A stretch of DNA of 64,000 bases from Candidatus Niyogibacteria bacterium (lineage in GTDB: Bacteria > Patescibacteriota > Minisyncoccia > JACROR01). Location of the stretch: contig JACPLO010000002.1 of assembly GCA_016186495.1 (NCBI GenBank), positions 6,857 to 70,856 of the forward strand, in the 5' to 3' direction. The position numbers were made by a program, and so were the translations under genes. How positions within the stretch are numbered: position 1 is the first letter of the stretch; the number at the start of each line of letters is the position of its first letter. Of the stretch, positions 3,187 through 50,604 are shown piece by piece. Below the pieces are notes generated by a model. It was given only the letters and a program-made list of their open reading frames with translations, did not search any database and was not told the origin of the DNA.

Positions 3187-3190
3187 AAAT

Positions 3191-3637
3191 ATGAAAATAA
3201 GAAAAAAATTAGGGTTTACGATTTTGGAAATTTTGGTTGTTTTGGCGATCGGCGCTTTAATTCTTTCTTTTGTTTTTTGGGGCTATCGCGATCTTAAAGC
3301 CAAAAGCCGCGATTCCAGAAGAGAACATGATATTAAAGAAATTCAAAATTCCCTTGTTCTTTACGTGAATGAGGCCGGTGTTTTTCCTTGTACTGGAGAA
3401 GGAGAAATAATTATCGGCGTTAATTCTTGTTTAAAAGACGCGCTTTTGGGAATCGGCGTTATTCCCGCTTTACCCATTGATCCTTTAGGAGGCGCCAGCG
3501 GCAGTTGCGGCAATCCTGCTTCTTACGTTTATTGTTATCAATCTTTGGAAAATGGCTTTAATTATCAAATAAGATATAATTTAGAGACCGACAGCATTTT
3601 AGGCAAAGCAAAAGGCCTTCAAAGCGTATCGCCTTAA
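3191..3637 (+). CDS. Prepilin-type N-terminal cleavage/methylation domain protein (pseudopilin)
   Basis: N-terminus KLGFTILEILVVLAIGALIL is a class III signal, followed by a Cys-rich C-terminus. Confidence 0.7.
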   Translation: MKIRKKLGFTILEILVVLAIGALILSFVFWGYRDLKAKSRDSRREHDIKEIQNSLVLYVNEAGVFPCTGEGEIIIGVNSCLKDALLGIGVIPALPIDPLGGASGSCGNPASYVYCYQSLENGFNYQIRYNLETDSILGKAKGLQSVSP

Positions 3638-3673
3638 AATGCCCCAGAATAAAAATAAAAAATTTATTGGAAA

Positions 3674-4741: not shown

Positions 4742-4798
4742 TTTCAAAGCTTGGAGCGCTGCCATAAGAAAATGAATTTTACAACATTAGTATAAATT

Positions 4799-6007
4799 AT
4801 GCTTTTTAATTATCAAGCCCGCACTCCGCAAGGGGAAATAAAATCAGGCAATATTGACGCCGCTTCCACGGAAGGCGCTCTCGCTTCTCTTCAACGCCGA
4901 AATCTTATCGTGATTTCTTTGGAGTCGGTTGAAAAATCAACGCCTTGGTATAAAAGAGGCATTACTTTGTTTGAACGCGTTAAGATGCGCGATGTGGTTA
5001 TTATTTCCCGCCAGCTTTCCACGCTTTTTGAAGCCAAGGTGCCGGTGGTGGAATCTTTAAAAGTTCTTGTTTCTGAAACCGCCAGTCCGGTTTTAAAGAA
5101 ACGTTTAGCCGCGATTTTGGAAGACATTGAAAGCGGCACTTCTATTTCCGAAGCTTTAGGCAAGTATCCTGAAATTTTTTCAAAATTTTACGTTAATATG
5201 GTTAAATCCGGAGAAGAATCCGGAAAACTAAACGAGGTTTTTTCTTATTTAGCCGATTATCTGGAACGTTCATATGATTTGACCGTTAAAGCCAGAAACG
5301 CTTTTATTTATCCGGCTTTCGTTTTAACGGTTTTTACGGTCGTGATGATTTTAATGTTGGTTATGGTGATTCCGCGGCTTTCAACTATTCTGACCGAAAC
5401 CGGCCAATCCCTTCCTTTTTACACAAAAATTATTATCGCTTTCAGCAATTTTTTAAGAAATTTCGGCATTTTACTTTTAGTTTTTTTGGCAATCGGCGTT
5501 ATTTTTCTCTGGCGCTATCTTCAGACCGGCGCGGGTAAAATGGCTTTTTCCCGTTTTCAACTGTCTATTCCGATTGCCGGTGAGCTTTATAAAAAATTTT
5601 ATTTGGCAAGAATAGCCGATAATCTGCAAACTCTTTTGGCGAGCGGGGTTCCCGTGGTGCGCGCTTTGGAAATTACTTCCGATGTGGTGGGCAACGAAGT
5701 TTACGCGGAAATTTTAAAAGAAACTATTTCTATGGTTAAATCCGGCAGTCCGATTTCCGAGGCGTTTTCTCGTTATGAAGAAGTTCCTTTATTGATTTCC
5801 CAATCCGTAAAAATCGGCGAAGAAACCGGCAAGCTGGATTTTATTTTAAGCACAATGGCGCGTTTTTACCGCCGGGAAGTGGATAATGCTGTAGATAATA
5901 TCGTCAGTTTAATTGAGCCGGTGATGATCGTGCTTTTAGGTTTGGGAGTCGGCGTTTTGGTGGCTGCGATTCTTGTTCCAATTTATAACATTTCAACGGG
6001 ATTCTAA
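4799..6007 (+). CDS. pilC: Type IV pilus platform protein PilC/GspF
   Basis: Two GspF-type repeats, three TM segments, 402 aa. Confidence 0.88.
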   Translation: MLFNYQARTPQGEIKSGNIDAASTEGALASLQRRNLIVISLESVEKSTPWYKRGITLFERVKMRDVVIISRQLSTLFEAKVPVVESLKVLVSETASPVLKKRLAAILEDIESGTSISEALGKYPEIFSKFYVNMVKSGEESGKLNEVFSYLADYLERSYDLTVKARNAFIYPAFVLTVFTVVMILMLVMVIPRLSTILTETGQSLPFYTKIIIAFSNFLRNFGILLLVFLAIGVIFLWRYLQTGAGKMAFSRFQLSIPIAGELYKKFYLARIADNLQTLLASGVPVVRALEITSDVVGNEVYAEILKETISMVKSGSPISEAFSRYEEVPLLISQSVKIGEETGKLDFILSTMARFYRREVDNAVDNIVSLIEPVMIVLLGLGVGVLVAAILVPIYNISTGF

Positions 6008-6123
6008 ATAATTTTCAATTTTCATTGAATTTACAATTTAATAATTTACAAACTAACGGGATAAATGAGATAATTAATGAAATAAGGTCGATAAAATAAA
6101 AATAATAAAATATACACGCAGAT

Positions 6124-6618
6124 ATGTTTTTAAGAAAAAATAAAGGTTTTACGTTGATTGAGCTTTTAGTGGTGATTGCCATTATCGGCATTTTGGCTTC
6201 GGTGGTGCTCGCTTCCTTGAATAGCGCGCGCAAGAAAGGCCGCGACGCCCGCCGGGTGGCGGATATCAAACAAATTCAGCTTGCTTTAGAGTTGTATTTT
6301 GACGCCAATAAGGAGTATCCGGACGCTCTTAGCGGAAAATTAAATCCCACTTATTTGCCGGCCGTGCCTGATGATCCTTTGAGTGGCGCTTATTTTTATG
6401 ACGCTTACACTACTTCCACCAATCCTCCGGTGGCGGGAGACGATTGCACGGAAGCCAGCGAGATGTGCCTTTCTTATCATTTAGGCGCTGATCTTGAAGA
6501 AAATACCAATCCGGCTTTAAACGCGGATATGGATGCGGACGGAAATACGATTGACGGGCCGGATGCGGATGGATGCGCTGATGCGGCCGGACGTTATTGC
6601 TATGATGTTAGGCCATAA
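6124..6618 (+). CDS. pilA: Type IV major pilin (PilA-like)
   Basis: N-terminus KGFTLIELLVVIAIIGILASVVLASL is a canonical N-methyl-Phe prepilin signal. The C-terminus is Asp-rich and carries a Cys pair. Confidence 0.85.
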   Translation: MFLRKNKGFTLIELLVVIAIIGILASVVLASLNSARKKGRDARRVADIKQIQLALELYFDANKEYPDALSGKLNPTYLPAVPDDPLSGAYFYDAYTTSTNPPVAGDDCTEASEMCLSYHLGADLEENTNPALNADMDADGNTIDGPDADGCADAAGRYCYDVRP

Positions 6619-6642
6619 TTATTCTGATTTTCAGGTATTTTA

Positions 6643-6682
6643 AACCTCTCCCTCTGGTTAGCCGGAAGGGGAGGTTTTATGT
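6643..6682 (+). terminator. Rho-independent terminator after pilin gene
   Basis: Stem aacctctccc / ggggaggtt followed by ttttatgtttt, 25 bp after the pilA stop. Confidence 0.6.
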
Positions 6683-7491
6683 TTTGTATTTGGCGGATAA
6701 CAAGTTATTATTTAATTATGGCGGGGATTTTAATTTTTATTTTAGGACTAATCATGGGCAGTTTTCTAAATGTGGTCATCTTTCGGCTGAATACCGGAGA
6801 ATCCGTTGCGAAGGGGCGTTCCCGATGTTTTGCCTGCGGCGCGGAGCTGAAGTGGTTTGAACTTATTCCGATTTTTAGTTTTTTGGTTCAAGCCGGCCGC
6901 TGTCGGGCCTGCCAAAGCAGAATATCTCGGCAATATCCGGCCGTGGAGCTGGCCGTGGCTTTGATTTTTTACGCTTTATATTTAAAATGGCTGGTAATTT
7001 GGCCGCCGAATATTCCGGTGTTTATCTGGTGGCTGGTTTTCTGGTCAATTTTTTTGACGCTGGCGGTTTATGATTTTCATCATAAAATTTTGCCTGATAT
7101 TTTAGTTTATCCTTTAGGAATTATCGCGGTTTTGGGCGGAGCGGTTTTTTTTAAAAAAGATTTTTGGCCGGCTTTGGCGATCGGCGTTTTATTTTTCTTG
7201 TTTTTTGCCGGCCTTTGGCTGGTTTCCAGAGGAAAATGGATGGGGCTGGGGGATGCTAAATTATTTTTCAGCGTCGGCGTTTTTTTAGGCTGGCCTTTGG
7301 CGCTGGTGGCGATGTTTTTTTCTTTTTGGCTTGGCGCTATAATAAGCGGTATCATAGTTATTTTAAAAAGGTCGTTAAATTTAAAAAGCGAGATCCCTTT
7401 CGGCCCTTTTATTTTTTTGGGAGCAATAATTGCTTTTTTCTGGGGGGATCTTGTATTTTCTTGGTATTTAAAAATAATTTTTAACGTATGA
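6679..7491 (+). CDS. pilD: Prepilin leader peptidase / N-methyltransferase PilD (peptidase A24)
   Basis: CxxC...CxxC zinc-finger region (CFACGAEL...CRACQSRI), multiple TM helices, 270 aa. Confidence 0.85.
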   Translation: MFCIWRITSYYLIMAGILIFILGLIMGSFLNVVIFRLNTGESVAKGRSRCFACGAELKWFELIPIFSFLVQAGRCRACQSRISRQYPAVELAVALIFYALYLKWLVIWPPNIPVFIWWLVFWSIFLTLAVYDFHHKILPDILVYPLGIIAVLGGAVFFKKDFWPALAIGVLFFLFFAGLWLVSRGKWMGLGDAKLFFSVGVFLGWPLALVAMFFSFWLGAIISGIIVILKRSLNLKSEIPFGPFIFLGAIIAFFWGDLVFSWYLKIIFNV

Positions 7492-7492
7492 A

Positions 7493-7570
7493 CCCCGTTA
7501 GAAATCTTCATAAATAAGGTTTCAAGCGGGGAAATGATTATGCAAAACAAAAAACAAATTTCTAACGGAG
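7493..7570. repeat. Palindromic repeat unit: ccccgttagaaat...atttctaacggag
   Basis: Inverted copies of the window-wide 9-mer. They flank the start of the 7534 CDS directly after the pilD stop. Confidence 0.7.
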
Positions 7571-7995
7571 TGAATATAAACATAAAAAAAGCTTTTCTCC
7601 AGATTTTTATCGGCGCGATAATTATCGGCGGATTGTTTTTTGTCGGCTTATCGCCGCGAGGCCAGAAATTTTCTTCAAATCCGGATAGCGTTAAGAACGG
7701 AGAAAAAAAATATTTTTTAACGCTTAATTACGGCAACGGAAAAATAAGAAAATTCAGCAGCGAAATGGCGGAGGAAAAGACCAGGGCGTGGAATCTGCTC
7801 CAGCTAGCCTCGGCCCAATCGGCGGTGTCAGTGGAAATTGAAGATGGATTTCTTCCCCGTTCCATTGATGGATTTAAAAACACCGATCAAAACAAATGGG
7901 TTTTATTCGTGAACGGAGCAAGGCAAACAAACGGCCCTTTTGAGGTGTTTGTCAAAAAGGGAGATTTGGTGGAGTTTAAGTATGAAAAACAATAA
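7534..7995 (+). CDS. Hypothetical membrane-anchored protein in pilus operon
   Basis: N-terminal TM then a beta-rich domain. No motif recognised. Codon 10-12 is the repeat-encoded SNG. Confidence 0.5.
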   Translation: MIMQNKKQISNGVNINIKKAFLQIFIGAIIIGGLFFVGLSPRGQKFSSNPDSVKNGEKKYFLTLNYGNGKIRKFSSEMAEEKTRAWNLLQLASAQSAVSVEIEDGFLPRSIDGFKNTDQNKWVLFVNGARQTNGPFEVFVKKGDLVEFKYEKQ

Positions 7996-8626
7996 AATAA
8001 ATTTTTTAAGGAGATTTACCCCATTAAATAGTTGCAAAGCAAATTTAACGGGGTTTACGGTTGTTGAAGTGTTGATTACCATGGGAGTTTTTGCGTTAGT
8101 TAGTTCAATGGTTTTGGCGAATTATCCCAAATTTTCCGAGCGGCTGACTCTGGAACAAACCGCTCAAAAAATCGCTTTATCTTTCCGGGAGGCAAAAATC
8201 CTCTCTTTAACGGTCGGAGAATCTGAAATTGGAACGCGAATTTTTCCCGGTTACGGCGTGCATTTTGACGCCGGTGAAAGCGGAAATAATAAAAGATATT
8301 TGATTTTTTCCGATCTTAACGCCGATAAAAAATATGCGGAGCCGGACGACGGAGAAAAAGATATTTTTGGAATCCAAAGCTCCGCTTTTATTTCAGGAGC
8401 TTGTTTCGGGGAAGAAGACGCCGGCAGTTTAAGCGAATGCCAAAGTTATAATCAAACGAAAATTTTAGATATAGTTTTTACTAGGCCAAAACCCAGCATT
8501 GATTTTTATGACGGCGAAAGAAGCCAGTGGCGAGGTGAGCAGAATGTCGGCATTTTTATCGTTAATCCCGAAGGCGATATTAAAAAAATAATTATCTGGA
8601 AAACCGGGCAGATAATGGTTGAATGA
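7940..8626 (+). CDS. Minor pseudopilin (prepilin-type cleavage/methylation domain)
   Basis: The track ORF starts at 7940; the start is uncertain. The mature end GFTVVEVLITMGVFALVSSM begins at ~8049. An unusually long leader, FTPLNSCKANLTG, is encoded by repeat DNA. Confidence 0.7.
   Translation: MRCLSKREIWWSLSMKNNKINFLRRFTPLNSCKANLTGFTVVEVLITMGVFALVSSMVLANYPKFSERLTLEQTAQKIALSFREAKILSLTVGESEIGTRIFPGYGVHFDAGESGNNKRYLIFSDLNADKKYAEPDDGEKDIFGIQSSAFISGACFGEEDAGSLSECQSYNQTKILDIVFTRPKPSIDFYDGERSQWRGEQNVGIFIVNPEGDIKKIIIWKTGQIMVE
8021..8058. repeat. Palindromic repeat (ccccattaaat...aatttaacgggg) overlapping pseudopilin leader
   Basis: Inverted-repeat pair of a family variant. The right arm encodes the L-T-G-F-T cleavage motif. 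Confidence 0.6.
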
Positions 8627-8640
8627 GATTTTATAATTAA

Positions 8641-8708
8641 TTCAAAAGTCAAAATGCAAAATTCAAAATTTCAATTCAAAATTCAAAAGTTTTATTTTTA
8701 ATTTTCAA
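8641..8708. repeat. AT-rich tandem TTCAAAA heptamer run
   Basis: About 6 direct copies of (a)ttcaaaa upstream of the PilV-like gene. Confidence 0.5.
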
Positions 8709-8710
8709 AT

Positions 8711-9229
8711 ATGGCTTATCCAAAATCCGGCAAAGGTTTCAGCTTATTAGAGACGCTTGTGGCTTTGGCGATTTTAAATGCCGCGATTTTAGGGCCAATC
8801 AGTCTGGCTTATGTCAGCATCCGTTCAGCCAGTTTGTCTCATAACATCACGATTGCCGCTTTTTTAGCCGAGGAAGGAGTGGAATTGGCGCGCAGTCAGC
8901 GCGAAAAAAATATTTACAGCGGCAATGATTGGCTTAATAGCCTTGCCGGTTGCGCGGTTGGCAGTCCTTGCCGAATCGCGACTGCCGCGGACGGCGAAAT
9001 CAGCGTTGTTTCTTGCGGCGGATCATGCGCGCCCCTTAATTATGATTCAGATATCGGTCTCTACTGGTATGAGAGCGGAAATGCTTCAATTTTTACCAGA
9101 AGTTTTACGGTTGAGGAAATAAAAGAAAACAAAGAAGCAAAAGTGACGATGACGGTCAGTTGGAAAGAACGTTTTTTAAGCGGCAATCAAAATATTCAGT
9201 TAGAAAGCCATCTTTCCAATTGGCATTAG
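8711..9229 (+). CDS. Minor pilin, PilV/GspI-like
   Basis: N-terminus GFSLLETLVALAILNAAILGPI. Confidence 0.7.
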   Translation: MAYPKSGKGFSLLETLVALAILNAAILGPISLAYVSIRSASLSHNITIAAFLAEEGVELARSQREKNIYSGNDWLNSLAGCAVGSPCRIATAADGEISVVSCGGSCAPLNYDSDIGLYWYESGNASIFTRSFTVEEIKENKEAKVTMTVSWKERFLSGNQNIQLESHLSNWH

Positions 9230-9235
9230 AAATTT

Positions 9236-9892
9236 ATGGCTGAAGATTTTAAATTTAAAAAATTAAGGCGCGGGTCGCGGTTTCTAACGGGGTTTACCCC
9301 AGTTAAATCTTTCGCTTCGCGAAATTTAACGGGGTTTACCCCGTTAAATAGTTGCGAAGCAAATTTAACGGGGTTTACTCTGCTGGAGATGATTGTGTCT
9401 TTGGGAGTTTTTTCCGCGGCGATTTTGATTATTTTAGGGGCTATTTTGTCCATTAATGACGCTCAAAAGAAAATGATTAATATTCAGGCCGTTGAAGATA
9501 ATTTGCGTTTCGCTTTGGACGCAATGTCCAGAGAGATTCGGACCGGATCTGTCTATAATTGCGAAGGAGGAGGTTCGGCGTCCGATTGTCCGGCCGGATC
9601 GCCAATTTTCGCTTTTGATTCCATCAGCGGGGGAAGGATTATTTATCGTTGGAACAGCGTTAATAAAAGCATTGAAGAATCGGAAGACAATGGCTCAACT
9701 TATTATCCGATAACCGGCAACGATCTGAAAATAGAAAAATTAACTTTTTATGTTTTTGGAACAAGAACGATTGATTTTAAACAGCCGCGAGTGACAATGA
9801 TTATAAAAGCATTTGCCGGAGAAGAAAGAGTTAAAACTCGCTCGGAATTCAATATTCAAACCACGGTTACGCAAAGAGAATTAGATTCATAA
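9236..9892 (+). CDS. Minor pilin, PilW/GspJ-like, with triplicated leader
   Basis: Mature end GFTLLEMIVSLGVFSAAILIIL. The N-terminal extension contains three LTGFT repeats encoded by tandem palindromic repeats. Confidence 0.65.
   Translation: MAEDFKFKKLRRGSRFLTGFTPVKSFASRNLTGFTPLNSCEANLTGFTLLEMIVSLGVFSAAILIILGAILSINDAQKKMINIQAVEDNLRFALDAMSREIRTGSVYNCEGGGSASDCPAGSPIFAFDSISGGRIIYRWNSVNKSIEESEDNGSTYYPITGNDLKIEKLTFYVFGTRTIDFKQPRVTMIIKAFAGEERVKTRSEFNIQTTVTQRELDS
9284..9378. repeat. Tandem palindromic repeat array (taacgggg-ttta-cccc(a)gttaaat x3)
   Basis: Three nested hairpin units of the TAACGGGG family inside the 5' end of the PilW-like ORF. Confidence 0.75.
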
Positions 9893-9897
9893 TTTTT

Positions 9898-10353
9898 ATG
9901 TTAAAAGGAAAAAACAAAGGAATCGCGCTTTTATTTTCAATTTTAATGCTAAGCATGGTTTTTACCGCCAGTTTGGCGATTTTTCAGATTGTTTTTACCG
10001 AGTTGAAACTTTCCGAAGGCGTGCGCGATTCCCAGCTTGCTTATTATGCCGCGGATTCGGCCGTGGAATGCGCGCTTTATGTTGATTTAGAGAGTGAAGA
10101 ATTCGGCCAGTCGGGAAAACCGAAAGTGCAGGATGATTGTTCGGGCGTTGATTCTAATGATATTCAAAAATTTGAAAATAATTGGTCAAACGGCGCTATT
10201 TTTACGGTGAATTACAGTAATGGTTCTTGCGCCGATGTGACGGTGGATAAAACCGGCGTGGGAGGATACGGAACATTCATCACCGTTTTAGGATTTAATA
10301 CCTGTGGAAACGCGGCAAGAAAAGTCAACCGCAGTTTGGAAGTGAAATACTAA
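9898..10353 (+). CDS. Minor pilin, PilX N-terminal-domain-like
   Basis: N-terminus KGIALLFSILMLSMVFTASLAIF with a conserved Cys pair. Position follows pilV/W as in fimU-pilVWX operons. Confidence 0.55.
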   Translation: MLKGKNKGIALLFSILMLSMVFTASLAIFQIVFTELKLSEGVRDSQLAYYAADSAVECALYVDLESEEFGQSGKPKVQDDCSGVDSNDIQKFENNWSNGAIFTVNYSNGSCADVTVDKTGVGGYGTFITVLGFNTCGNAARKVNRSLEVKY

Positions 10354-16397: not shown

Positions 16398-16468
16398 AGC
16401 GGGGTAGACCAGTAGTAGGTCGCAAGGCTCATAACCTTGAAGCGCAGGTGCAATTCCTGCCCCCGCAA
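16398..16468 (+). tRNA. tRNA-Met (CAT), elongator-type
   Basis: Anticodon stem CAAGG/CCTTG, loop CTCATAA, D-stem GACC/GGTC, T-stem GCAGG/CCTGC. It has an A1·A72 mismatch and an atypical T-loop TGCAATT. Confidence 0.55.
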
Positions 16469-16469
16469 C

Positions 16470-17435
16470 ATGAAGATATTTATTACGAGGAAAATTCCCG
16501 AAGCGGGAATTAAAAAGCTCGCGGAAAAACACGAGATTAAAATCAGTCCGCATGATCGCGTTTTATCAAAAGAAGAATTGATTGCCGCGCTGAAAAATCA
16601 GGGATACGGCGCGGTGCTTTGCCTTTTAACCGATAAAATTGATGACGATGTTTTAGAAGCGGCCGGCAAGCAATGCCGGATTTTCGCCAATTTTGCCGTG
16701 GGTTTTGATAATATTGATCTGGTTGCGGCCAAAAAACGGGGCATAATAATTACCAATACGCCGGGAGTTTTAACGGACACCGTGGCAGAGCATACTTTTA
16801 CTTTGATGCTGGCGATTTCCCATCGGATTGCCGAAGCGGATAAATTCACCAAAACCGGAAAATACGAGGGCTGGGCGCCGATGCTTTTATTGGGAAATGA
16901 TTTATCAAGAAAAACTGTCGGCATTGTGGGTTTGGGGCGGATTGGCTCGCGCGTGGCCCATCACGCGGCTAAAGGATTTGACGCGCGCGTGATTTATCAC
17001 GACCTTCAGCGCAATAAAGAATTTGAGAAAGAATTTAACGCGGAATACAGGGAAAAATTGGAAGATTTATTGAAAGAGGCGGATTATGTTTCTCTGCATG
17101 TGCCGCTTTTGCCGGCCACGCGGCATTTGCTGAACGCCGAGCGGCTGAAATTAATGAAGCCGACCGCATATCTTATAAATACTTCGCGCGGGCCGGTGAT
17201 AGACGAAAAAGCGTTAGTGGAAGCGCTGCACGCCAAAATTATCAAAGGCGCGGCTTTGGATGTTTTTGAAAACGAACCGGCGTTAGCCGAAGGATTGGCA
17301 AAACTTGATAACGCAATTTTGACGCCGCATATCGCTTCCGCCACCGAAGAAACGCGCGGCAAAATGGCGGAATTGGCGGTAGATAACATTATTGCTGCTT
17401 TAGAAGGGCGGACACCTCCTAATTTAGTGGGGTAA
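16470..17435 (+). CDS. D-isomer-specific 2-hydroxyacid dehydrogenase (glycerate DH / hydroxypyruvate reductase family)
   Basis: GLGRIGSRVA NAD-binding motif with catalytic R/E/H context. The track ORF starts at TTG 16437 inside the tRNA, so the real start is probably ATG 16470. Confidence 0.82.
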   Translation: MKIFITRKIPEAGIKKLAEKHEIKISPHDRVLSKEELIAALKNQGYGAVLCLLTDKIDDDVLEAAGKQCRIFANFAVGFDNIDLVAAKKRGIIITNTPGVLTDTVAEHTFTLMLAISHRIAEADKFTKTGKYEGWAPMLLLGNDLSRKTVGIVGLGRIGSRVAHHAAKGFDARVIYHDLQRNKEFEKEFNAEYREKLEDLLKEADYVSLHVPLLPATRHLLNAERLKLMKPTAYLINTSRGPVIDEKALVEALHAKIIKGAALDVFENEPALAEGLAKLDNAILTPHIASATEETRGKMAELAVDNIIAALEGRTPPNLVG

Positions 17436-17491
17436 ACCCCGTTAGAAATCGCGAACGCAATGTTCGCGTTCTATTTCTAACGGGGTAAAAC
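17429..17491. repeat. Long palindromic repeat: ggggtaaaccccgttagaaat-cgcgaacgcaatgttcgcg-atttctaacggggtaaaac
   Basis: Near-perfect 60-bp hairpin built from the family 9-mer. The stop codon of the upstream gene lies inside it. Confidence 0.8.
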
Positions 17492-17501: not shown

Positions 17502-18476
17502 ATGCGCGGGGCGATTATAAATTTTCCCAAACAATTTGATTATAAACCGGCGACTAAGAATAAAAGCGTTTTGAAAAAGGCGAAACATTTTGTGGTTGTC
17601 GGAATGGGCGGTTCGGGTTTGGTCGGAGATTTATTGCGTGGTTGCAATCCTCGCCTTGATCTTATTATCCATAAAAATTACGGTTTGCCTGTTTTAGCGG
17701 ACGGCGTTTTGGAAAAAAGTTTGATTGTTTTAAGTTCTTATTCGGGAAATACCGAAGAGGTTCTTGATTCCTATCAAGCGGCTAAGAAAAAAAGATTGGC
17801 GATGGCGGCGATTTCTATTGGCGGAAAATTATTGGAACAGGCTAAAGCTGACGGCATTCCTTACATTCAATTTCCGGATCTGGGAATTGAACCGCGTTTC
17901 GCTTTAGGTTTCAGTTTTCGGGCTTTGGCGGAAATAATCGGCGAAAAAAACGCGTTTGAAGAATCGGGCCGGCTGGCTGAGTTGTTAAAGCCGGAAGATT
18001 TTGAAGAAAAAGGAAAAGAACTGGCCGAGAAATTAAAAGGATTTGTGCCGCTGGTTTATTCATCGGAAAAAAATCGGGCCGCGGCTTACAATTGGAAAAT
18101 AAGATTTAATGAAACCGGCCATGTTCCCGCTTTTTGCAATGTTTTTCCGGAGTTGAATCATAATGAGATGGCGGGATTTGATTTTCAAGAATCAACGCAA
18201 GAATCAATAAAAGAACTTTCGCGGAATTTTTATTTTATTTTTTTAAAAGATTCCGGCGACCATCCGCGGATTATTAAAAGAATGGAAGTAATGGAAGCGA
18301 TTTTGCGCGATAAAAAAATGCCGGTTGAAAATGTCAGTCTTGAAGGAGAAAATTTTCTTCATAAGGTTTTTTCTTCAGTCGCGCTCGCGGATTGGACGTC
18401 TTTTTATCTTGTTCAAACATCCGGCTTTAAAGCCGAAAGCGAGTTTATTGTGGAAAAATTCAAAAAATTGATATAA
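17502..18476 (+). CDS. Bifunctional phosphoglucose/phosphomannose isomerase (archaeal-type SIS)
   Basis: VVVGMGGSGLVGDLL SIS motif, ~320 aa. Confidence 0.72.
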   Translation: MRGAIINFPKQFDYKPATKNKSVLKKAKHFVVVGMGGSGLVGDLLRGCNPRLDLIIHKNYGLPVLADGVLEKSLIVLSSYSGNTEEVLDSYQAAKKKRLAMAAISIGGKLLEQAKADGIPYIQFPDLGIEPRFALGFSFRALAEIIGEKNAFEESGRLAELLKPEDFEEKGKELAEKLKGFVPLVYSSEKNRAAAYNWKIRFNETGHVPAFCNVFPELNHNEMAGFDFQESTQESIKELSRNFYFIFLKDSGDHPRIIKRMEVMEAILRDKKMPVENVSLEGENFLHKVFSSVALADWTSFYLVQTSGFKAESEFIVEKFKKLI

Positions 18477-25264: not shown

Positions 25265-26707
25265 ATGTTTTTTAGAAAATTTCAAACTTTTGTTTTAATT
25301 TTTATTTTTATAACGGGCGCTTTTTTAAGCGTCCGTTCCGCGTTTTCTCAAAGCCAAACCGTTGACCCCGTTAGAGGTAAGATTCCGGAGGAATCTGCCG
25401 GTTTGCCGTTAGCAAATCGGACCTCTAACGGGGTTGATCCGGCCGCGATTTTGGAACAACGGGCTAAACTGCTGGAAGAAGAAAAGGAAGTGGAAGAACA
25501 GATTGGCGGATTGATGGTTATTATTCAAAATAAACAAGGGGAAACCGCCAGTTTGGAGCGCGATATCGCCATTATTAACGCCGAGATTAAAAAAGCAAAA
25601 CTGGCCATTAAAGCCAGAACTCTGACGATTGATAATCTTAATTCATCAATCGGAGAAAAATCTAAATTTATTGTTAAACTTTTAGACAAACAAGAGCGCG
25701 AAAAAGAATCTTTAGCCGAGCTTTTGCGGCAATTGAATGAATTTGGAGACACCACTTTAGTGGAGATTATTTTGGGTTATGAAAATCTTTCCGATTTTTT
25801 CGTGAATATGGATTCTTTGGATTTTCTTCAAAAATTCATTCAGGATTCTTTTGACGAAATTAAAATAACAAAAGAGAATACTGAAGAAGAGAAGTCTATT
25901 CTGGAAGAAAAAAAGAAAGAAGAATCAGAACTCCGTTATTTGCAGGAGCTTGAGAAAAAAAGAACTGAAGAAAGAGAAAAAGAAAAGAAAAAGATTTTAG
26001 AAATTACGCGCGGCGAAGAAAATGAATACCAAAAGCTTTTGGCCAGTCGGAAGAAAGATATTGCTCAAATCAGAAATCAACTTTTTATTTTGCGTGGTTC
26101 GGACGCCATTCCTTTTGAAAAAGCCATTGAATACGCCAATATCTCATTTAAGGCAACAGGCGTGCGCCCAGCTTTTCTTTTGGGAATAATTGCCGAAGAA
26201 TCCGAATTGGGCGCTAATTTAGGGTCCGGAAATTGGAAAACTGACATGTACGATTGTTATCGCCGAATCGGCTACAATAAGTCGGCGGAAAAACAAAAAA
26301 CCGCTTTTTTAGCGATTATTTCAGAATTATTTATTGACAGTCCTGATTCAAGGCCGGTTTCCAAAGCGCCGTATTACGGCTGCGGCGGAGCCATGGGGCC
26401 GGCGCAGTTTATGCCCGCTACTTGGTGGGATCCGGTTGGCAATACGGGATATAAAAAATTGATCGCTCAATATACCGGCCATAATCCTCCGGACCCGTGG
26501 AGTCCGGAAGACGCTTTTATGGCCGCGGCGCTTTTGCTTAAAGACAACGGCGCGGCGGCCGGAGGATTTACCGCGGAACGCCGGGCAGCTTTAAGATATT
26601 TAGCCGGCGGCAATTGGAATAAGCCGGCTTACGCTTTTTACGGCGACGACGTGATGGCTTTGGCTAAAAAATATCAAGATCAGATTGATATTTTAACGGA
26701 ATCTTAA
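25265..26707 (+). CDS. Secreted coiled-coil protein with C-terminal lytic-transglycosylase (SLT/lysozyme-like) domain
   Basis: Signal/TM, long coiled coil, then EESELG (catalytic E-S) and [13 protein letters not shown] motifs. The track ORF 25022 is a 5' over-extension. Confidence 0.55.
25365..25434. repeat. Palindromic repeat inserted in-frame in CDS (accccgttagaggt...acctctaacggggt)
   Basis: 14-bp perfect inverted repeats 42 bp apart. It encodes DPVRG...TSNGVDP in the linker of the transglycosylase protein. Confidence 0.8.
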
Positions 26708-28691: not shown

Positions 28692-28732
28692 AGGCAATAA
28701 GGAAAAAAAGCAAAAAATTCTGATAAAAAAAT

Positions 28733-28862
28733 GAATCCCGTTAGAGATTAAAGACTTTATTTTTTAACGGAATTTAAAAATATCTTTAATAATGATAATT
28801 AGAAATTATAAGAATAATTTACGGAAATGATTAAAATCATTTCCTATCTCTAACGGGATGAA
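28733..28862. repeat. 130-bp palindromic element, copy A (TIR atcccgttagagat / atctctaacgggat)
   Basis: About 90% identical to copies at 43461 and 50474. It has an internal perfect hairpin, ggaaatgatt-aaaa-tcatttcc. The tsf ATG at 28858 lies in the right TIR. Confidence 0.9.
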
Positions 28863-29900: not shown

Positions 29901-29918
29901 CCCGCCCCGTTAGAAATG
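29901..29918. repeat. Left 18-bp inverted repeat ccccgttagaaatgccga flanking tRNA-Thr
   Basis: Exact reverse complement of 29993-30010. Confidence 0.85.
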
Positions 29919-29989
29919 CCGACGTAGCTCAGTGGTAGAGCAACGGTTTTGTAAACCGTAGGTCGTGGGTTCAAATCCCTCCGTCGGCT
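29918..29989 (+). tRNA. tRNA-Thr (TGT)
   Basis: Hand fold: acceptor GCCGACG/CGTCGGC, D-stem GCTC/GAGC, anticodon stem ACGGT/ACCGT with loop TTTGTAA, T-loop TTCAAAT. 72 nt. Confidence 0.8.
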
Positions 29990-29992
29990 CAT

Positions 29993-30010
29993 CGGCATTT
30001 CTAACGGGGT
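29993..30010. repeat. Right 18-bp inverted repeat tcggcatttctaacgggg flanking tRNA-Thr
   Basis: Exact reverse complement of 29901-29918. Confidence 0.85.
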
Positions 30011-32250: not shown

Positions 32251-32934
32251 ATGAAAAAATACATAATTTCAGCCATAATTTTAATTTTGGGCTTAAGCGC
32301 GTATTATTTTATTTATCAGCTAAAAATCGGAGATAATAATATGAAGGAAGCAAACGAAAATTCTAAGGAGGATTTGAATCCCGTTAAAAATAACGAGTTG
32401 AGCGATGTTGAGAATAGCGCCGCGAAACAGCGTAAAATTTCTAACGGGATGAATCCGCGCGCGACGCTGGAAACGAGCATGGGTAATATTACGATAGAAC
32501 TTTATCCTAAAGATGCGCCGAAAACCGTGGCTAATTTTATCGGTTTAGCTAAAAAAGGATATTATAACGGCGTTATTTTTCATCGGGTGGTAAGCGGTTT
32601 TGTCATTCAGGGAGGCGATCCGACCGGCACGGGCGCCGGCGGCAATTCCATTTACGGCGGCGATTTTGAAGACGAACTTGATTTAAATACGGAAAGTTAT
32701 CAGCGCGGATATTTAAAAGGCGCGGTCGCGATGGCTAATCGCGGGCCTGACACTAATTCCAGCCAATTTTTTATTATGCTTGAAGATAAATCTTTGCCTA
32801 AGCTTTACACTATTTTCGGCAAAGTGGCGGAAGGAGATGATGTCGTCCAAAATATCGGCCGGGTGAAAGTAGGCGCTAATGACAAGCCATTGGCGCCGGT
32901 TATCATAAATAAAATTATTGTTGAAGGAAATTAG
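32251..32934 (+). CDS. Peptidyl-prolyl cis-trans isomerase (cyclophilin type), membrane-anchored
   Basis: GYYNGVIFHRVV...GGDPTGTGAGG cyclophilin core, with an N-terminal TM. Confidence 0.88.
   Translation: MKKYIISAIILILGLSAYYFIYQLKIGDNNMKEANENSKEDLNPVKNNELSDVENSAAKQRKISNGMNPRATLETSMGNITIELYPKDAPKTVANFIGLAKKGYYNGVIFHRVVSGFVIQGGDPTGTGAGGNSIYGGDFEDELDLNTESYQRGYLKGAVAMANRGPDTNSSQFFIMLEDKSLPKLYTIFGKVAEGDDVVQNIGRVKVGANDKPLAPVIINKIIVEGN
32375..32456. repeat. Palindromic repeat inserted in-frame in cyclophilin linker (ttgaatcccgttaaaaat...aatttctaacgggatgaat)
   Basis: The ends match the 130-bp element termini. It encodes NPVKNN...ISNGMNP between the TM anchor and the PPIase domain. Confidence 0.8.
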
Positions 32935-33014
32935 TCTTATTTCTAACGGGATTGATTTATTTTTTTTATAATGATATTTTTTAAATAAATAAGTTCATTT
33001 ATATCGGAGGCGAT

Positions 33015-33717: not shown

Positions 33718-34992
33718 ATGACAACTTCTAACGGGGTAAAACAAAATATCGTTATTTTGGGAGCGGGGTTTGCCGGCGTGAGAGCGGCTTTGGATTTAGC
33801 CAGATACCTGCCTTCGGAAGCGAAAATTACCCTGATTGACCGGAATTCTTTCCATTCATACACGCCGGCTTATTACGAAGTGGCGGCCGCTTTTTTGCCG
33901 GAAAAAGAAGAGCTTTCCCGGGAACAATTTGAATTATTGGCTTCAACCGCCGCCATTCCTCTTAAAACTATTTTTGAAAAATATAAAAATGTGGAATTGG
34001 CAATCGGCGAAGTGGCGGATATTTTGCCTGAAAAAAATCAGATTGAGATAAAATCGGGCGGAAAATACCGCTATGATTGGCTGATCATCGCTTTGGGAAG
34101 CGAACAAGATTATTTCGGGTTATCGGAGATCAAAAAATATGTTTATACTTTAAAAAGCCTGGAAGGCGCGCTTAATTTGCGGAACGGCATTGATGAATTA
34201 TTTTGGCGCCGGGCTAAGCATGAAAAAATAAAAATAATAGTGGCGGGCGGCGGATTTTTGGGAAGCGAGATAGCGGCCGAACTTGCCGGTTATGTCAAAA
34301 AACTTAATCGCCAACATTCTCGGCCAAAAGAAAATTGCGAAATAAGCATTATTGAAGGAGGACAGAATGTTTTAGGAAACGCCAGCGAATGGGCGCGGAA
34401 AAAAGCGGCCGGCCGGTTGGAAAAATTGGGCGTAAAAATTTCAACAAACAGTTTAATCAGCAAAGTAACCGAAGAAAAATTGATTTTGAAAGACGGCCAA
34501 ACTGTTTCTTATGATATTTTAATTTGGACAGTCGGCGTTCGGGCTTGCGCGATTACCGGCCAACTGGTCGGCCAAGGGCAAGAATTAAAGGGCAAAGGAT
34601 GCCTGGCCGTTGACCGATATTTGCGCGTCATTCCCTATGAAAATATTTTTGCCGCCGGAGATATTGCTTACGCGTCCGATTACGAAATAAATACTTTTAT
34701 GCCGATGACCGCTCAAGTCGCTATTCTTCACGGCCAATATATCGCTTACACGATAAAAAGAATGATTCGCAAACGCCGCCCGTTCCCTTATTGGCCGCAC
34801 CAAAATAGATTTAGCATCGCGCTTGGCGGAAAATACGCGCTTTTTGACGGAAAGCGGTTTAAATTCTCCGGTTTTTTCGCCTGGCTTTTGAAACATTTGA
34901 CGACTTTAAAATATTTCGCGGGCATTCTTCCTTTTTATCGCGCTTTTTTTATCTGGCAACGGGGTTTTAAGATATATAAAGATAACGATTAA
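33718..34992 (+). CDS. FAD-dependent pyridine nucleotide-disulfide oxidoreductase (NDH-2-like)
   Basis: N-terminal IVILGAGFAGV and a second IIVAGGGFLGSE dinucleotide fold. The start codon region ATGACAACTTCTAACGGGGT is a repeat half-site encoding MTTSNGV. Confidence 0.7.
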   Translation: MTTSNGVKQNIVILGAGFAGVRAALDLARYLPSEAKITLIDRNSFHSYTPAYYEVAAAFLPEKEELSREQFELLASTAAIPLKTIFEKYKNVELAIGEVADILPEKNQIEIKSGGKYRYDWLIIALGSEQDYFGLSEIKKYVYTLKSLEGALNLRNGIDELFWRRAKHEKIKIIVAGGGFLGSEIAAELAGYVKKLNRQHSRPKENCEISIIEGGQNVLGNASEWARKKAAGRLEKLGVKISTNSLISKVTEEKLILKDGQTVSYDILIWTVGVRACAITGQLVGQGQELKGKGCLAVDRYLRVIPYENIFAAGDIAYASDYEINTFMPMTAQVAILHGQYIAYTIKRMIRKRRPFPYWPHQNRFSIALGGKYALFDGKRFKFSGFFAWLLKHLTTLKYFAGILPFYRAFFIWQRGFKIYKDND

Positions 34993-37088: not shown

Positions 37089-37433
37089 ATGGAACAAAAA
37101 ATAAATCCCGTTAAAAGTTTTATAGCAAAAAAAGTATTAACTAAAAAGAAAGCCGAAGGCGAATTTGTCGACAAAAGTATGGATAACGACAAGCTCGGCA
37201 GAACTTCTAACGGGATAAAAAAAATTTTAGAAACTGAAATCGCGCCGATGCTCGCGATGCATGGCGGAAGAGTGGAATTTGTCAGTTTTGAAGAGGGGAC
37301 GGTAAAAATTCGGCTTAAAGGCGCTTGCCATGGCTGCGCGCTTTCCGAATTAACCTTGAAAGAAGGCGTGGAAAGAATTCTTAAAGAAAAAATCCGCAAA
37401 ATAAAAAGCGTGGAAAATGTTGAACCCCGTTAG
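37089..37433 (+). CDS. NifU C-terminal-domain (Nfu-type) Fe-S carrier with repeat-encoded N-terminal extension
   Basis: MHGGRVEFVSFEEGTVKIRLKGACHGC CxxC motif. The first ~42 codons are encoded by a palindromic repeat. Confidence 0.78.
   Translation: MEQKINPVKSFIAKKVLTKKKAEGEFVDKSMDNDKLGRTSNGIKKILETEIAPMLAMHGGRVEFVSFEEGTVKIRLKGACHGCALSELTLKEGVERILKEKIRKIKSVENVEPR
37103..37216. repeat. Palindromic repeat in-frame at 5' end of nfu (aaatcccgttaaaagtt...aacttctaacgggat)
   Basis: 15-bp inverted repeats ~100 bp apart. It encodes NPVKSF...RTSNGIKK. Confidence 0.8.
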
Positions 37434-37537
37434 AAGTTCAACCATGCTTTATTATATTAAAATCAAAAGTAAGCAAAGTCGCCTAACGGCTCACTTTAAT
37501 GTAAATTTTTATTATTATGACAACTTCTAATGGGGTG
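37422..37537. repeat. Palindromic repeat spanning nfu stop to nifS2 start (gaaccccgttagaagtt...aacttctaatggggtg)
   Basis: The left arm contains the nfu TAG stop. The right arm overlaps the nifS2 ATGACAACTTCTAATGGGGTG start. Confidence 0.8.
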
Positions 37538-43460: not shown

Positions 43461-43595
43461 AATGAATCCCGTTAGAGATTAAAACCTTTATTTTTTAACG
43501 GAATTTAAAAATAACATCAATGAAAATAATTAGAATTACAAGAATAATTCACGGAAATGATTTTAATCATTTCCTATCTCTAACGGGATGAATTT
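43461..43595. repeat. 130-bp palindromic element, copy B
   Basis: About 90% identical to copies A and C. It sits between the scpA stop and scpB. The scpB ATG at 43588 is inside the right TIR. Confidence 0.9.
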
Positions 43596-44217
43596 ATCCA
43601 ACATTATAGAATCAATTTTGTTTATTTACGGCGAGCCGATGAAAATATCGCGGCTGGCTGAAATTTTAAACAAAAAAGAAAACGAAGTGGAAGAGGCTTT
43701 GGCGGTTTTGGAAAATAATTTAGCGGAACGGGGATTAAAATTAATTAAAAACAACGGCGAAGCAACGCTGGCCACTGTTTCCGAAGCTTCCGAATTTATC
43801 CAAGGGCTTTTAAAAGAAGAATTCAGCGGTAAATTAACCAAAGCGGCTTTAGAAACTTTGGCGATTGTCGCATATTCAGGCCCTTTGCCGCGCGCGGAAA
43901 TTGATTTTATCAGGGGAGTAAATTCTTCTTTCATTTTGCGGAATTTGCTGATCAGCGGGCTGGTGGAAAGGGAAATTAATCCTAAAGACCGGAGAACTTT
44001 TATTTATAAGCCGTCAATGGATTTTTTGCGGTTTTTAGGCCTTAGTAAATTAGAAGATTTGCCGGAATACGGCGAATTTCGGAAAAGTTTGGAAGATTTT
44101 TCGTCCCTCACGCTTAATTTAAACGTGAGGGGCGAAGAAGAAATAAATCCCGTTAGAAGCCGTGATCGCTTTATGAAACAGCCGCAATCTAATGAAAATC
44201 AAAATTCATCAGAATAA
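43588..44217 (+). CDS. scpB: Segregation and condensation protein B
   Basis: Winged-helix ScpB motifs (IESILFIYGEP...), adjacent to scpA. Confidence 0.85.
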   Translation: MNLSNIIESILFIYGEPMKISRLAEILNKKENEVEEALAVLENNLAERGLKLIKNNGEATLATVSEASEFIQGLLKEEFSGKLTKAALETLAIVAYSGPLPRAEIDFIRGVNSSFILRNLLISGLVEREINPKDRRTFIYKPSMDFLRFLGLSKLEDLPEYGEFRKSLEDFSSLTLNLNVRGEEEINPVRSRDRFMKQPQSNENQNSSE

Positions 44218-44268
44218 AATTAAATTTCTATCAGATCGCCGATCACAATCTGCTTCTAACGGGATAAA
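44147..44268. repeat. Palindromic repeat spanning scpB 3' end (aaatcccgttagaagc...gcttctaacgggat)
   Basis: 14-bp inverted repeats ~105 bp apart with an internal gtgatcg/cgatcac inverted repeat. The last ~23 scpB codons (INPVRSRD...) are repeat-encoded. Confidence 0.75.
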
Positions 44269-46315: not shown

Positions 46316-47371
46316 TTATAACTCTATTTTAGAAAGCGCGCCGCCATCCAAAACATAGACGGTTTTTTGAGAAGGGCGGACGGCAAAAGTCGGATTTTTG
46401 CCTTTGTAAATCGGCTGCATATTGCGATTGCCGCGGCCGTCAATTTCTAAGGCAAAAATGCCGTTTTCCGCGGCAAAAATAATAACATCTTCTCTTAAAG
46501 GAAAGAAATCAATATTTTTGATGGGAGAACGGGTTTTGATAATCATTTCTTTTTCCGCCGACAAATAATAAGGAAGAGGGAGATTTTTTTCCAGCCATTC
46601 GGTCCAGATTTCATTGTCTTTTTCCAACCAGATTTTTAATTTTTTATGCTTGTCAAATCTGATAAATTGGCGCGCCTGATCCTCGCCTTCATTTTCGGTT
46701 AGAAGATATTCGGGAGCTGGCGCGGGAAAAGCGCGAACCGTTTTGTTTTCAAAATCAAATTCGGTTTTTAAAAAAGAACGATCGGAAAAAGAAAGCAAAG
46801 CCGTTTGATTTTCCGGCCAATAAACATCGCCTATTTTTTTAAAAGAAGAAAAGATTTTATTTATTGAGATTGAGGCGTTTGTCATAAATTCTTCGGAAGC
46901 CGGAAGATAAAAAACTATTTTTCTCATTTCGTTTTTTAATTCTTCCAGGATTAATATTTCATCAAAAGGTGAAGCAAAAACGGAGATAAAAGGTCCTCGC
47001 GCCAGAGTTTTTCCCTCCGGCGAACGGGGAATTAGGAAAGCGCGGGCTTCCGTTACCAATTGAGGATTTATTTTCAGATTTTTTTGCCAAGGCCAATAGT
47101 TTTCTTTAGCCACCAGAGCGGAATAAACATCGGGTTTTAGATTTTGGATGAAGACTCCGCCTTGCAAAAGATTTGTTTGTTTTTCCAGGTTGTTGTCAAT
47201 AAATATCTCTGAACTGGAAAGAGGAGAATAAATATAAATTCCTCCGGTTTTGGCTAAAGACCAATTATTCGCCAAGCGATAGCCGGCGGTATACAAAAGA
47301 ACAAGCGGCGTGATAATAAAAAAAACCGCGATTGAAAGAAAAAGTAATTTTCGCCGATATTTAAGAGTCAT
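46316..47371 (-). CDS. Hypothetical membrane-anchored periplasmic protein
   Basis: N-terminal TM, 351 aa. It is the only minus-strand gene in the cell-wall block. No family recognised. Confidence 0.45.
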   Translation of the reverse strand: MTLKYRRKLLFLSIAVFFIITPLVLLYTAGYRLANNWSLAKTGGIYIYSPLSSSEIFIDNNLEKQTNLLQGGVFIQNLKPDVYSALVAKENYWPWQKNLKINPQLVTEARAFLIPRSPEGKTLARGPFISVFASPFDEILILEELKNEMRKIVFYLPASEEFMTNASISINKIFSSFKKIGDVYWPENQTALLSFSDRSFLKTEFDFENKTVRAFPAPAPEYLLTENEGEDQARQFIRFDKHKKLKIWLEKDNEIWTEWLEKNLPLPYYLSAEKEMIIKTRSPIKNIDFFPLREDVIIFAAENGIFALEIDGRGNRNMQPIYKGKNPTFAVRPSQKTVYVLDGGALSKIEL

Positions 47372-50478: not shown

Positions 50479-50604
50479 ATCCCGTTAGAGATTAAAACCT
50501 TTATTTTTTAACGGAATTTAAAAATATCATCAATGAAGATAATTGGAAATTACAAGAATAATTTACGGAAATGATTTTAATCATTTCCTATCTCTAACAG
50601 GATG
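50474..50604. repeat. 130-bp palindromic element, copy C
   Basis: About 90% identical to copies A and B. The holB-like TGA stop lies in the left TIR (aacATGAatcccg). The right TIR is slightly degenerate (taacagg). Confidence 0.9.

Follow-up and report, generated by a model that had tools for sequence, protein, structure and literature searches.

In a 64-kb stretch of the Candidatus Niyogibacteria bacterium contig JACPLO010000002.1 (hereafter the window), three protein-coding genes carry a short palindromic element within their open reading frames (ORFs), and related elements recur along the rest of the sequence. The first of the three genes, ORF 25265-26707, encodes a lytic-transglycosylase-like protein (LT; SLT_2 by Pfam) and holds a copy of 68 nt (25366..25433) flanked by a target-site duplication (TSD) of TTGA (25362-25365 and 25434-25437). 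Copy and duplication together add 72 nt, or 24 amino acids, directly after a signal-peptide-like N-terminus, and the arms (25365-25384 and 25415-25434), of 20 nt each, are 90% complementary. The second gene, ORF 32251-32934, encodes a cyclophilin in which a 71-nt copy (32379..32449) between duplicated TGAA (32375-32378 and 32450-32453) adds 75 nt, or 25 amino acids, to the linker joining a membrane helix to the PPIase core. Its arms, TCCCGTTAAAAAT (32379-32391) and ATTTCTAACGGGA (32437-32449), are complementary at 12 of 13 positions, as are the arms TCCCGTTAAAAGT (37106-37118) and ACTTCTAACGGGA (37203-37215) of the copy in the third gene, 37089-37433, which encodes Nfu (NifU C-terminal domain). 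That copy, of 110 nt (37106..37215) between duplicated TAAA (37102-37105 and 37216-37219), sits after codon 5 and adds 114 nt, or 38 amino acids.

A sequence-only reading of this DNA had proposed that the three inverted-repeat pairs leave the frame intact and add hydrophilic peptides outside conserved domains, in the manner of Rickettsia palindromic elements (RPEs). The substance of that proposal is borne out. All three ORFs are uninterrupted, the arms are read as ..PV(R/K).. and ..SNG.. at all three sites, and the inserted peptides of 24, 25 and 38 residues have negative grand averages of hydropathy (-0.61, -1.20 and -0.79, respectively). The inserts also fall outside the conserved domains, lying behind the signal-peptide-like segment, in the linker, and at residue 5, and an AlphaFold model of the cyclophilin gives a predicted local distance difference test score below 50 for residues 27-65, which comprise the linker and most of the insert (residues 42-66). 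The count of three copies, all of them real, proved too low: the window holds at least 14 left-right arm pairs and 3 orphan right arms, including three more fully intragenic copies in pilin-like genes. Likewise, the likeness to RPEs fits as a description of behaviour, but not as membership of the Rickettsia families. For the Nfu gene, the public annotation of an identical protein (P0122, Candidatus Niyogibacteria bacterium) gives 84 amino acids and starts at a methionine inside the element, and comparison with orthologues places the original start, MEQKI, still in frame upstream of the annotated one.

Orthologues of the three proteins, which according to the sequence-only reading should share the segments if these were ancestral, lack them, and the insertion reading stands. 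Eight cyclophilin orthologues of 198-205 amino acids, 72-84% identical over aligned residues, run from ..EN(x)xxVNPR.. directly into the PPIase core without the 25-residue segment, as compared to 227 amino acids for the window protein; the closest cyclophilins carry the names Patescibacteria or Parcubacteria. Among the relatives compared by contig (L006, L007, L008, L009 and L010), L007 (GCA_038064095.1) shares the gene order L25, SLT, RF, L31, S2, EF-Ts, tRNA-Thr and cyclophilin, and its LT orthologue is 86% identical and lacks exactly the 24 inserted residues. Three Nfu orthologues begin MEQKIKKILETE.. (MEQKIKKIL..), where the window protein reads MEQKI-[38 aa]-KKILETE.

The corresponding empty sites can be read at the nucleotide level. 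They are ACCG[TTGA]TCCGGCC for LT and GCGG[TGAA]TCCGCGCG for the cyclophilin, both in L007, and AAAA[TAAA]AAAAATT for Nfu in L010, and in each case the filled site consists of the empty-site sequence with the bracketed 4 bp on either side of the element. Empty sites in L007 or L010 were matched for seven copies (LT, cyclophilin, S2/EF-Ts, Nfu start, Nfu/NifS, ScpA/ScpB and ScpB/S11), as was the right-end junction at the Pyr_redox start. In L007 or L010, S2 and EF-Ts, Nfu and NifS, ScpA and ScpB, and ScpB and the S11 peptidase are encoded by genes that overlap or adjoin one another, and in the window an element with TGAA or TAAA on its flanks splits each of these pairs. Because each filled site shows a 4-bp target duplication relative to the empty-site DNA, the segments are insertions rather than ancestral sequence, and a target duplicated over 4 bp at the point of insertion is a hallmark of transposition. 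Arms are absent from 23 kb of L006 and L007, and 20 kb of L010 holds one paired degenerate copy, as compared to 14 pairs in the 64 kb of the window; thus the elements have expanded in the lineage of the window. The degenerate copy of L010 (6594-6633; CCCCGTTAAAC...TTTAACGGAG) has TCAA flanks and lies upstream of the Pyr_redox_2 gene. Since it resides in an otherwise insert-poor contig, the family predates that expansion.

What defines the family is its ends. The conserved element end, common to both termini, spans 13 nt, (C/T)CCCGTTAGA(A/G)(A/G)T, and its core 9-mer TCTAACGGG has 32 matches in the window, counting both strands and at most one mismatch, against an expectation of 9.5 +/- 3.2, a count reached by none of 100 shuffled windows. 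All arms were listed and then paired; their density is about one per 2 kb, and both coding and non-coding DNA are hit. Elements begin and end as CCCC...GGGG or TCCC...GGGA within a T-N-N-A target duplication, the targets in the window being mostly TGAA, TAAA, TTTA and TTGA. Identical 4-nt flanks border 13 of the 14 window pairs; moved outward as a control, the comparison gives 0 of 14. Element length ranges from 35 to 123 nt in the window and from 22 to 391 nt elsewhere, and no copy in either set contains a long ORF. Every copy folds into a long hairpin, and single arms are not palindromic. The interiors are mostly unrelated among copies, yet each forms a hairpin by itself, and the arm positions outside the core change in concert within each copy (GAGGT/ACCTC, GAGAT/ATCTC and GAAGC/GCTTC, with GTGAT/ATCAC as a metagenome variant). 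The insertions supply 13 to 38 amino acids if intragenic, or, in other copies, new stop or start codons. It is highly probable that the family consists of non-autonomous, palindromic transposons resembling transposable elements of the miniature inverted-repeat type (MITEs), with 13-bp terminal inverted repeats and T-N-N-A integration that duplicates 4 bp. A transposase supplied in trans would make the staggered 4-bp cut.

The frame in which the arms are read follows from their structure. Stop codons occur in the left arm only in the frame CCC-CGT-TAG and in the right arm only in the frame xTTC-TAA, leaving each arm open in two of three frames, and an insertion of 3n nt pairs the frames such that PV(R/K) goes with (I/T)SNG, PL(E/N) with (F/N)LTG, and stop with stop. 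The common reading frame of the arms at the three sites thus arises because the palindrome forces frame pairing, and with two of three frames open the shared PV/SNG frame, judged from the sequence, appears less striking than at first. Similarly, hydrophobic and then N/D residues precede PV and follow SNG because the duplication gives codons xTN and NAY. Lengths divisible by three, a property that the in-frame claim entails, characterize all six fully intragenic copies of the window (39, 42, 39, 72, 75 and 114 nt), each of them stop-free, as compared to one of the eight intergenic or boundary copies. Inversion of the element would put stop codons into the LT and Nfu genes, so that only the present orientation is stop-free in two of the three genes.

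An insertion of 3n nt would accordingly be read as ..PV(R/K)...(I/T)SNG.. or ..PL(E/N)...(F/N)LTG.., and because both arms are stop-free in two of three frames and the element is palindromic, purifying selection would leave two kinds of survivor. In one, stop-free copies in frame would be translated as an additional hydrophilic peptide in tolerant places, such as just behind a signal peptide, in the linker of a membrane anchor, at the very N-terminus or in a prepilin leader that is cleaved off. In the other, copies would persist at gene junctions, where the favoured targets TGAA and TAAA overlap stop codons and ATGAA starts; there, an element would part genes that once overlapped, and its left arm would bring a new TAG stop, or its right end a new start (ATGACAACTTCTAAYGGGG).

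Junction copies occur throughout the window. Between the prepilin peptidase gene (6679-7491) and the gene 7534-7995 lies a copy of 78 nt (7493..7570), the left TGAA duplication of which (7489-7492) holds the TGA stop and the right arm of which gives the following protein an N-terminal ..ISNGV... A near-perfect hairpin of 49 nt (17437..17485) separates a 2-hydroxyacid dehydrogenase gene (16437-17435) from a PGI-like gene (17502-18476) and is flanked by TAAA, the left one holding the TAA stop. A 123-nt copy of what is here called subfamily A (28736..28858, TSD TGAA) lies between the S2 and EF-Ts genes and recreates the EF-Ts ATG (28858) from its last base and the duplication; in L007, which has no element there, the S2 stop and EF-Ts start overlap (TAATG). 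At the Nfu/NifS-like junction, a 111-nt copy (37425..37535, TSD TGAA) provides the Nfu stop TAG (37431-37433) from its left arm and, in its right end, the ATG (37517) that opens the next protein, MTTSNGV..., whereas L010 has no element and an overlap of both genes at ATGT[TGAA]CAAAAC. Another subfamily A copy, of 122 nt (43467..43588, TSD TGAA), parts ScpA from ScpB, the stop and start of which overlap in L010 (ATCA[TGAA]TTTACC), and a 117-nt copy (44148..44264, TSD TAAA) at the 3' end of the ScpB gene supplies the final 22 residues and the stop (..INPVRSRDRFMKQPQSNENQNSSE*) of a protein of 209 amino acids, as compared to 186 in L010. The third subfamily A copy, of 123 nt (50480..50602, TSD TGAA), follows gene 49780-50478 and precedes a mini-ORF and the ribosome recycling factor gene; this mini-ORF (50603-50689), which lies between the element and that gene, has 28 codons and encodes a hydrophobic peptide (MKYALIIILTFLIIIFVVSAIRLMIGN*). 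All three copies of 121-123 nt have one common orientation relative to the downstream gene, and where they sit on ATGAA starts (28730-28750, 43461-43481 and 50474-50494) a mini-ORF of six codons, MNPVRD*, now begins in the upstream copy of the duplication.

Orphan right arms are found on the plus strand at 32939..32951 (ATTTCTAACGGGA), beginning 5 nt past the cyclophilin stop codon, and at 33724..33736, where the arm and the ATG at 33718 give a Pyr_redox_2 protein the N-terminus MTTSNGVK; its orthologue in L010 begins MKQNIVV. Two window proteins therefore open with MTTSNGV, the ATG lying within the right end. The tRNA-Thr gene (29918-29990) is bracketed by an arm pair (29905..30009) that forms a perfect inverted repeat of 18/18 positions, and the right arm is also complementary to the first 5 nt of the tRNA. 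L007 has only GATTAGAAAT on the 5' side of tRNA-Thr and a T-run on its 3' side. A further inverted repeat, unrelated to the family, consists of 44-nt arms (54706-54749 and 54824-54867) that are 82% complementary with 74 nt between them; it lies between a class II tRNA synthetase gene (53475-54722) and a gene starting at 54875, and may be a separate palindromic element family.

The three remaining intragenic copies reside in a type IV pilus cluster (1477-10353), which comprises genes for a PilB-like ATPase (1477-3186), PilC (4799-6007), the major pilin (MFLRKNKGFTLIELLVV; 6124-6618), the prepilin peptidase and four minor pilin-like proteins (7982-8626, 8711-9229, 9236-9892 and 9898-10353). In the leader of the pilin-like gene 7982-8626, a copy of 35 nt (8019..8053) between duplicated TTTA (8015-8018 and 8054-8057) adds 39 nt that are read in the other open frame (..FTPLNSCKANLTGFT..) and regenerates the G|FT prepilin cleavage motif. 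The leader of gene 9236-9892 contains a tandem array (9280..9373), in which an orphan right arm (9280-9292) is followed by complete copies at 9297-9334, with a gain of 42 nt, and at 9339-9373, with a gain of 39 nt, TTTA lying between and around the copies; the array is read as FLTGFTPVKSFASRNLTGFTPLNSCEANLTGFTLLE. All three pilin-leader copies are read in the FLTG/PLx frame. Since copies and TTTA duplication rebuild the G|FT motif, their sole effect would be a longer leader that is removed on processing. In a Phycisphaerae metagenome-assembled genome (MAG; L082), the pseudopilin genes 1815-2576 and 3360-4235 also carry the element in the prepilin leader (GFTPLEIRRCFLTGFTLIELLVV). Derivation of the arms from pilin leaders was considered and rejected, the pilin motif following 1 of 215 arms in the cross-phylum set described below.

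Some copies share more than their ends. Mean column identity among the three subfamily A copies is 93%, and their homology breaks off precisely where the TGAA flanks begin. JGI metagenomes contain additional members of subfamily A elsewhere, both arms carrying a matching change (GTTAGTGAT / ATCACTAAC); a metagenome scan with an interior 22-mer of the 121-nt subfamily returned six loci, five of which are the same short element and one a chance match. Other subfamilies with shared interiors include one of 92 nt in the MAG DX4.bin27 and one of 93 nt in several delta-proteobacterial MAGs. At the Nfu site, the same TAAA is filled in three related genomes by insertions that, duplication included, measure 114 nt (window, 37102-37219), 84 nt (L008, 1530-1640) and 45 nt (L009, 700-760). 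The arms differ (AGAAAG/CTTTCT versus AAAAGT/ACTTCT), the flanking coding DNA is nearly identical, and the 84-nt and 45-nt elements have both ends of the interior in common, which indicates that deletion in place occurs. The site could be a hot spot of re-insertion or one of rapid turnover in place.

The distribution of the family extends far beyond the window. Scanning one genome per species for the 14-mer ACCCCGTTAGAAAT gave a cross-phylum set of at least 120 loci, and the results that follow hold among the matches listed. A partner arm lies within 400 nt of 115 of 155 seeds, as compared to 3 of 121 in viral contigs, which served as a control for chance. Hosts include Desulfobacterota, delta-proteobacterial and Thermodesulfobacteriota MAGs, Gammaproteobacteria MAGs, Pirellulales, Phycisphaerae and other Planctomycetota, Omnitrophota, Kazan, Stahlbacteria and KSB1, as well as Saccharibacteria, Moranbacteria, Nealsonbacteria, Komeilibacteria, Jorgensenbacteria and Kerfeldbacteria, so that several classes of Patescibacteria are represented; no rickettsial locus is present among the 120 genome loci listed. 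Identical TNNA flanks border 44 of 73 scorable pairs, as compared to none of 73 in a shifted control, with TAAA/TTTA (21), TGAA/TTCA (9) and TCAA/TTGA (7) as flank classes, and 40 of the 73 insertions are 3n nt long where 24 would be expected by chance. In the logo of the partner arm, T-N-N-A-C-CCCGTTAGAAAT is conserved and nothing past position 13. Mis-binned contigs of the Candidate Phyla Radiation were rejected as the source of the cross-phylum matches on the grounds of locus GC (0.31 to 0.59), phylum-typical gene content and a length of more than 1 Mb for some contigs. A phage-like contig (L247, IMGVR_UViG_3300038429_000794) carries three copies within 750 nt (3244-3992) and encodes a transposase of Mu type, with MuA domains, as well as an AAA protein resembling MuB; a transposable phage is plausible as the vehicle between hosts.

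Several other explanations deserve consideration beside that of a MITE-like transposon. If the segments were ancestral and had been lost in relatives, their palindromy being incidental, inserts at the same site in other genomes would be expected, and L008 and L009 do have one at the Nfu site. Each segment is nonetheless missing from many orthologues of several species, the same 13-nt arms surround unrelated interiors at 14 or more sites, and filled sites equal the empty site plus the element plus a 4-bp direct repeat, making ancestry highly improbable. It could also be argued that the hairpin is kept as a functional RNA or DNA signal, be it a terminator, an RNase III-type stem, an mRNA stabiliser or a protein-binding site, and that mobility is secondary or absent. 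Arms that covary copy by copy, long hairpins in all copies, the many copies at gene junctions and a tRNA bracketed with 18/18 pairing are all in keeping with such a role, although it seems unlikely as the primary one: target duplications and empty sites prove insertion, no element matched Rfam at gathering thresholds or at E <= 1, conservation at the nucleotide level across phyla of 31-59% GC would not be expected of a signal, and close relatives lack copies at the same junctions. Single copies may have been co-opted for a secondary role. The proposal that the 9- to 13-mer is a DNA uptake sequence of the Neisseria DUS or Haemophilus USS type, which would accumulate genome-wide and often as inverted pairs, draws on the density of about one arm per 2 kb, the type IV pilus cluster in the window and the presence of arms in coding and non-coding DNA alike; we consider it barely credible, as uptake sequences arise in place by point mutation or recombination, not as TSD-flanked insertions missing from orthologous sites, and the motif is missing in close relatives yet present in distant phyla.

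Two further possibilities concern the intragenic copies in particular. These might remain untranslated, either because ribosomes skip them, as in byp elements and T4 gene 60, or because they are removed from the mRNA, and the matching direct repeats around each hairpin do resemble take-off and landing codons. Skipping, however, needs neither a length of 3n nor freedom from stops, properties that six of six intragenic copies combine as compared to one of eight copies elsewhere, and the opposite orientation would carry stops in two of the three genes; we regard this explanation as very unlikely. Alternatively, the inverted repeats could be sites for an invertase (intragenic invertons) or another site-specific recombinase that generates two isoforms. 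Inverted repeats around short intragenic segments are what such a system would use, and the abutted ends with a 4-bp spacer in the pilin arrays recall a recombinase core site. Yet inversion brings stops into LT and Nfu, the 9-97 nt that separate the 13-nt arms leave an invertase very little room for synapsis, the cyclophilin locus has the same orientation in five independent assemblies, and no recombinase gene lies nearby, leaving very little probability for this alternative.

The interpretation as MITE-like transposons is itself not free of difficulties, and a number of observations weigh against it. Neither the window nor about 130 loci (~1 Mb sampled) contain a transposase or a longer parent with these ends. 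Thirteen conserved nucleotides are very little for recognition by a transposase, and the interiors are mostly unrelated. Perfect duplications are missing from 29 of the 73 cross-phylum pairs, some copies of 22-30 nt are too short for transposition as such, and translation of the inserts is deduced from frame and stop statistics. The tRNA-Thr pair has no TSD (CCCG versus TAAA) and therefore is not a simple insertion; its right arm may be a copy of the left one, or two ends may have captured the intervening tRNA. Where the enzyme was sought, distant arm pairs (L027, L078, L082, L103 and L106) were found to enclose genes for a hydrolase, an aldehyde oxidoreductase, a sirtuin, pseudopilins, an AIR-synthase-like protein and similar, with no transposase among them. 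An all-against-all BLAST of 723 ORFs from 120 sampled loci gave housekeeping clusters only and no recurrent transposase, and a Pfam scan of 20 window ORFs found no transposase, recombinase, integrase or HUH/Y1 transposase. Few ORFs of the window lie on the minus strand, and the two long ones, 46316-47371 (351 amino acids) and 52783-53343 (186 amino acids), both included in the scan, have no Pfam match. A BLAST search with the bare palindrome against 72,556 plasmids had no match, and a literature search for the arm sequences in a relevant context, for MITEs in Patescibacteria and for TNNA target duplication found no paper. The Mu-type enzyme of L247, the only transposase found, was rejected as the mobiliser because the 5-bp duplication of Mu chemistry is at odds with the 4 bp duplicated here.

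A wider proposal, which we offer tentatively and with less than even confidence, is that the elements form an undescribed palindromic-element superfamily spread across many phyla, defined by the 13-bp end CCCCGTTAGAAAT and TNNA, and moved by a piggyBac/IS1380-like, host or phage-borne enzyme; the fraction of seed matches that are true pairs suggests thousands of copies across Omnitrophota, Patescibacteria, Planctomycetota, Desulfobacterota and further groups. If so, the stop-free ends would repeatedly provide streamlined genomes with in-frame peptides, extended prepilin leaders and additional start and stop codons. That distant phyla carry almost the same ends points to common transposition machinery or a common vector, and an enzyme, if found, would be of interest for mobile-DNA and genome-engineering work on account of its recognition site of 13 bp and its target of 4 bp. 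Patescibacteria have small, tightly packed genomes with overlapping genes, and a mobile element appears to be tolerated here dozens of times per genome, either in frame or with its own stop or start. Lineage-specific extensions of proteins and 'unpacked' gene junctions thereby gain a concrete origin that can be dated, and the elements carry a warning for annotation in that start codons are mis-called inside elements, as with Nfu.

How the family relates to known palindromic and mobile elements can be judged from its ends, its targets and its relation to the reading frame. Pairs of REP sequences (REPINs) and their RAYT enzymes offer short palindromic repeats, often in inverted pairs with long hairpins, at high copy number. 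REPINs were rejected as an identity, being extragenic and species-specific, with no TSD, a palindromic REP unit, a GTAG-type 5' end and a RAYT gene, whereas the present family has intragenic copies and TNNA duplications. Integron attC sites, with R'' (RYYYAAC)...R' (GTTRRRY) over 57-141 bp, were likewise rejected: the order here is reversed (GTTAGA...TCTAAC), copies lie in genes with a TSD, and the window has no integrase. The byp elements of Magnusiomyces capitatus mitochondria are mobile hairpins in coding genes, similar to GC clusters and bordered by short matching repeats, that break up the frame and over which the ribosome jumps. In contrast to these frame-breaking elements, every intragenic copy here is in frame and stop-free, so that read-through is simpler than byp-like skipping. 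An alternative genetic code was also rejected, the ORFs being long and contiguous under table 11.

With respect to transposons proper, piggyBac duplicates 4-bp TTAA and has CCC...GGG ends, with the end sequence CCCTAGAAAG. In its CCC...GGG ends, TAGAAA motif and T..A duplication the present family (CCCCGTTAGAAAT) resembles piggyBac (CCCTAGAAAG), a likeness that we treat as a lead only. The 4-bp TNNA duplication and the CCCC...GGGG termini would suit a transposon of the piggyBac or IS1380 type, but the inner two target bases are free here, and the sampled loci contain no DDE transposase of the piggyBac/IS1380 type. Inverted repeats of the IS1380 family measure 13-16 bp and its duplications 4-5 bp, IS1247 having IR 16/13 and DR 5 (PMC3281130, Table 2). 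As for MITEs, the elements are shorter than 500 bp and have no transposase gene, share terminal inverted repeats, show a TSD at filled as compared to empty sites and form dispersed subfamily copies; what is lacking in the ~1 Mb of sampled loci is a parent autonomous element with the same ends. To our knowledge, the ends CCCCGTTAGAAAT combined with a TNNA duplication match no known bacterial MITE, and Correia, ERIC and RUP duplicate TA.

The bacterial MITEs Correia/NEMIS, ERIC, RUP and Nezha otherwise resemble the present family in small size, inverted repeats, TSD, many copies, subfamilies, occasional in-frame fusions and effects on neighbouring genes (PMC10969869). In-frame fusions by intragenic MITEs are known, RPEs being the extreme case (PMC10969869). 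Like the elements described here, RPEs (Ogata et al. 2000 and 2002) are short palindromes that lie in frame in unrelated housekeeping genes, outside conserved cores, as well as near RNA genes and in intergenic DNA, without a transposase (PMC10969869). They differ by description, RPEs (RPE-1 to RPE-10) being mostly longer, with ~100-150 nt, a consensus over the whole length and a conserved encoded peptide per family (PMC10969869), as opposed to 35-123 nt with 13 nt conserved. A relationship in sequence would not be expected, and the hosts differ too, Rickettsia and close relatives in one case and Patescibacteria and many other phyla in the other, where a clear 4-bp TNNA duplication accompanies the insertions. 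Among bacterial MITEs, nearly identical ends across phyla are unusual. Thus the kind of element is already known, and what sets this family apart is conservation confined to 13 nt, widely varying interiors and the same ends in one phylum after another.

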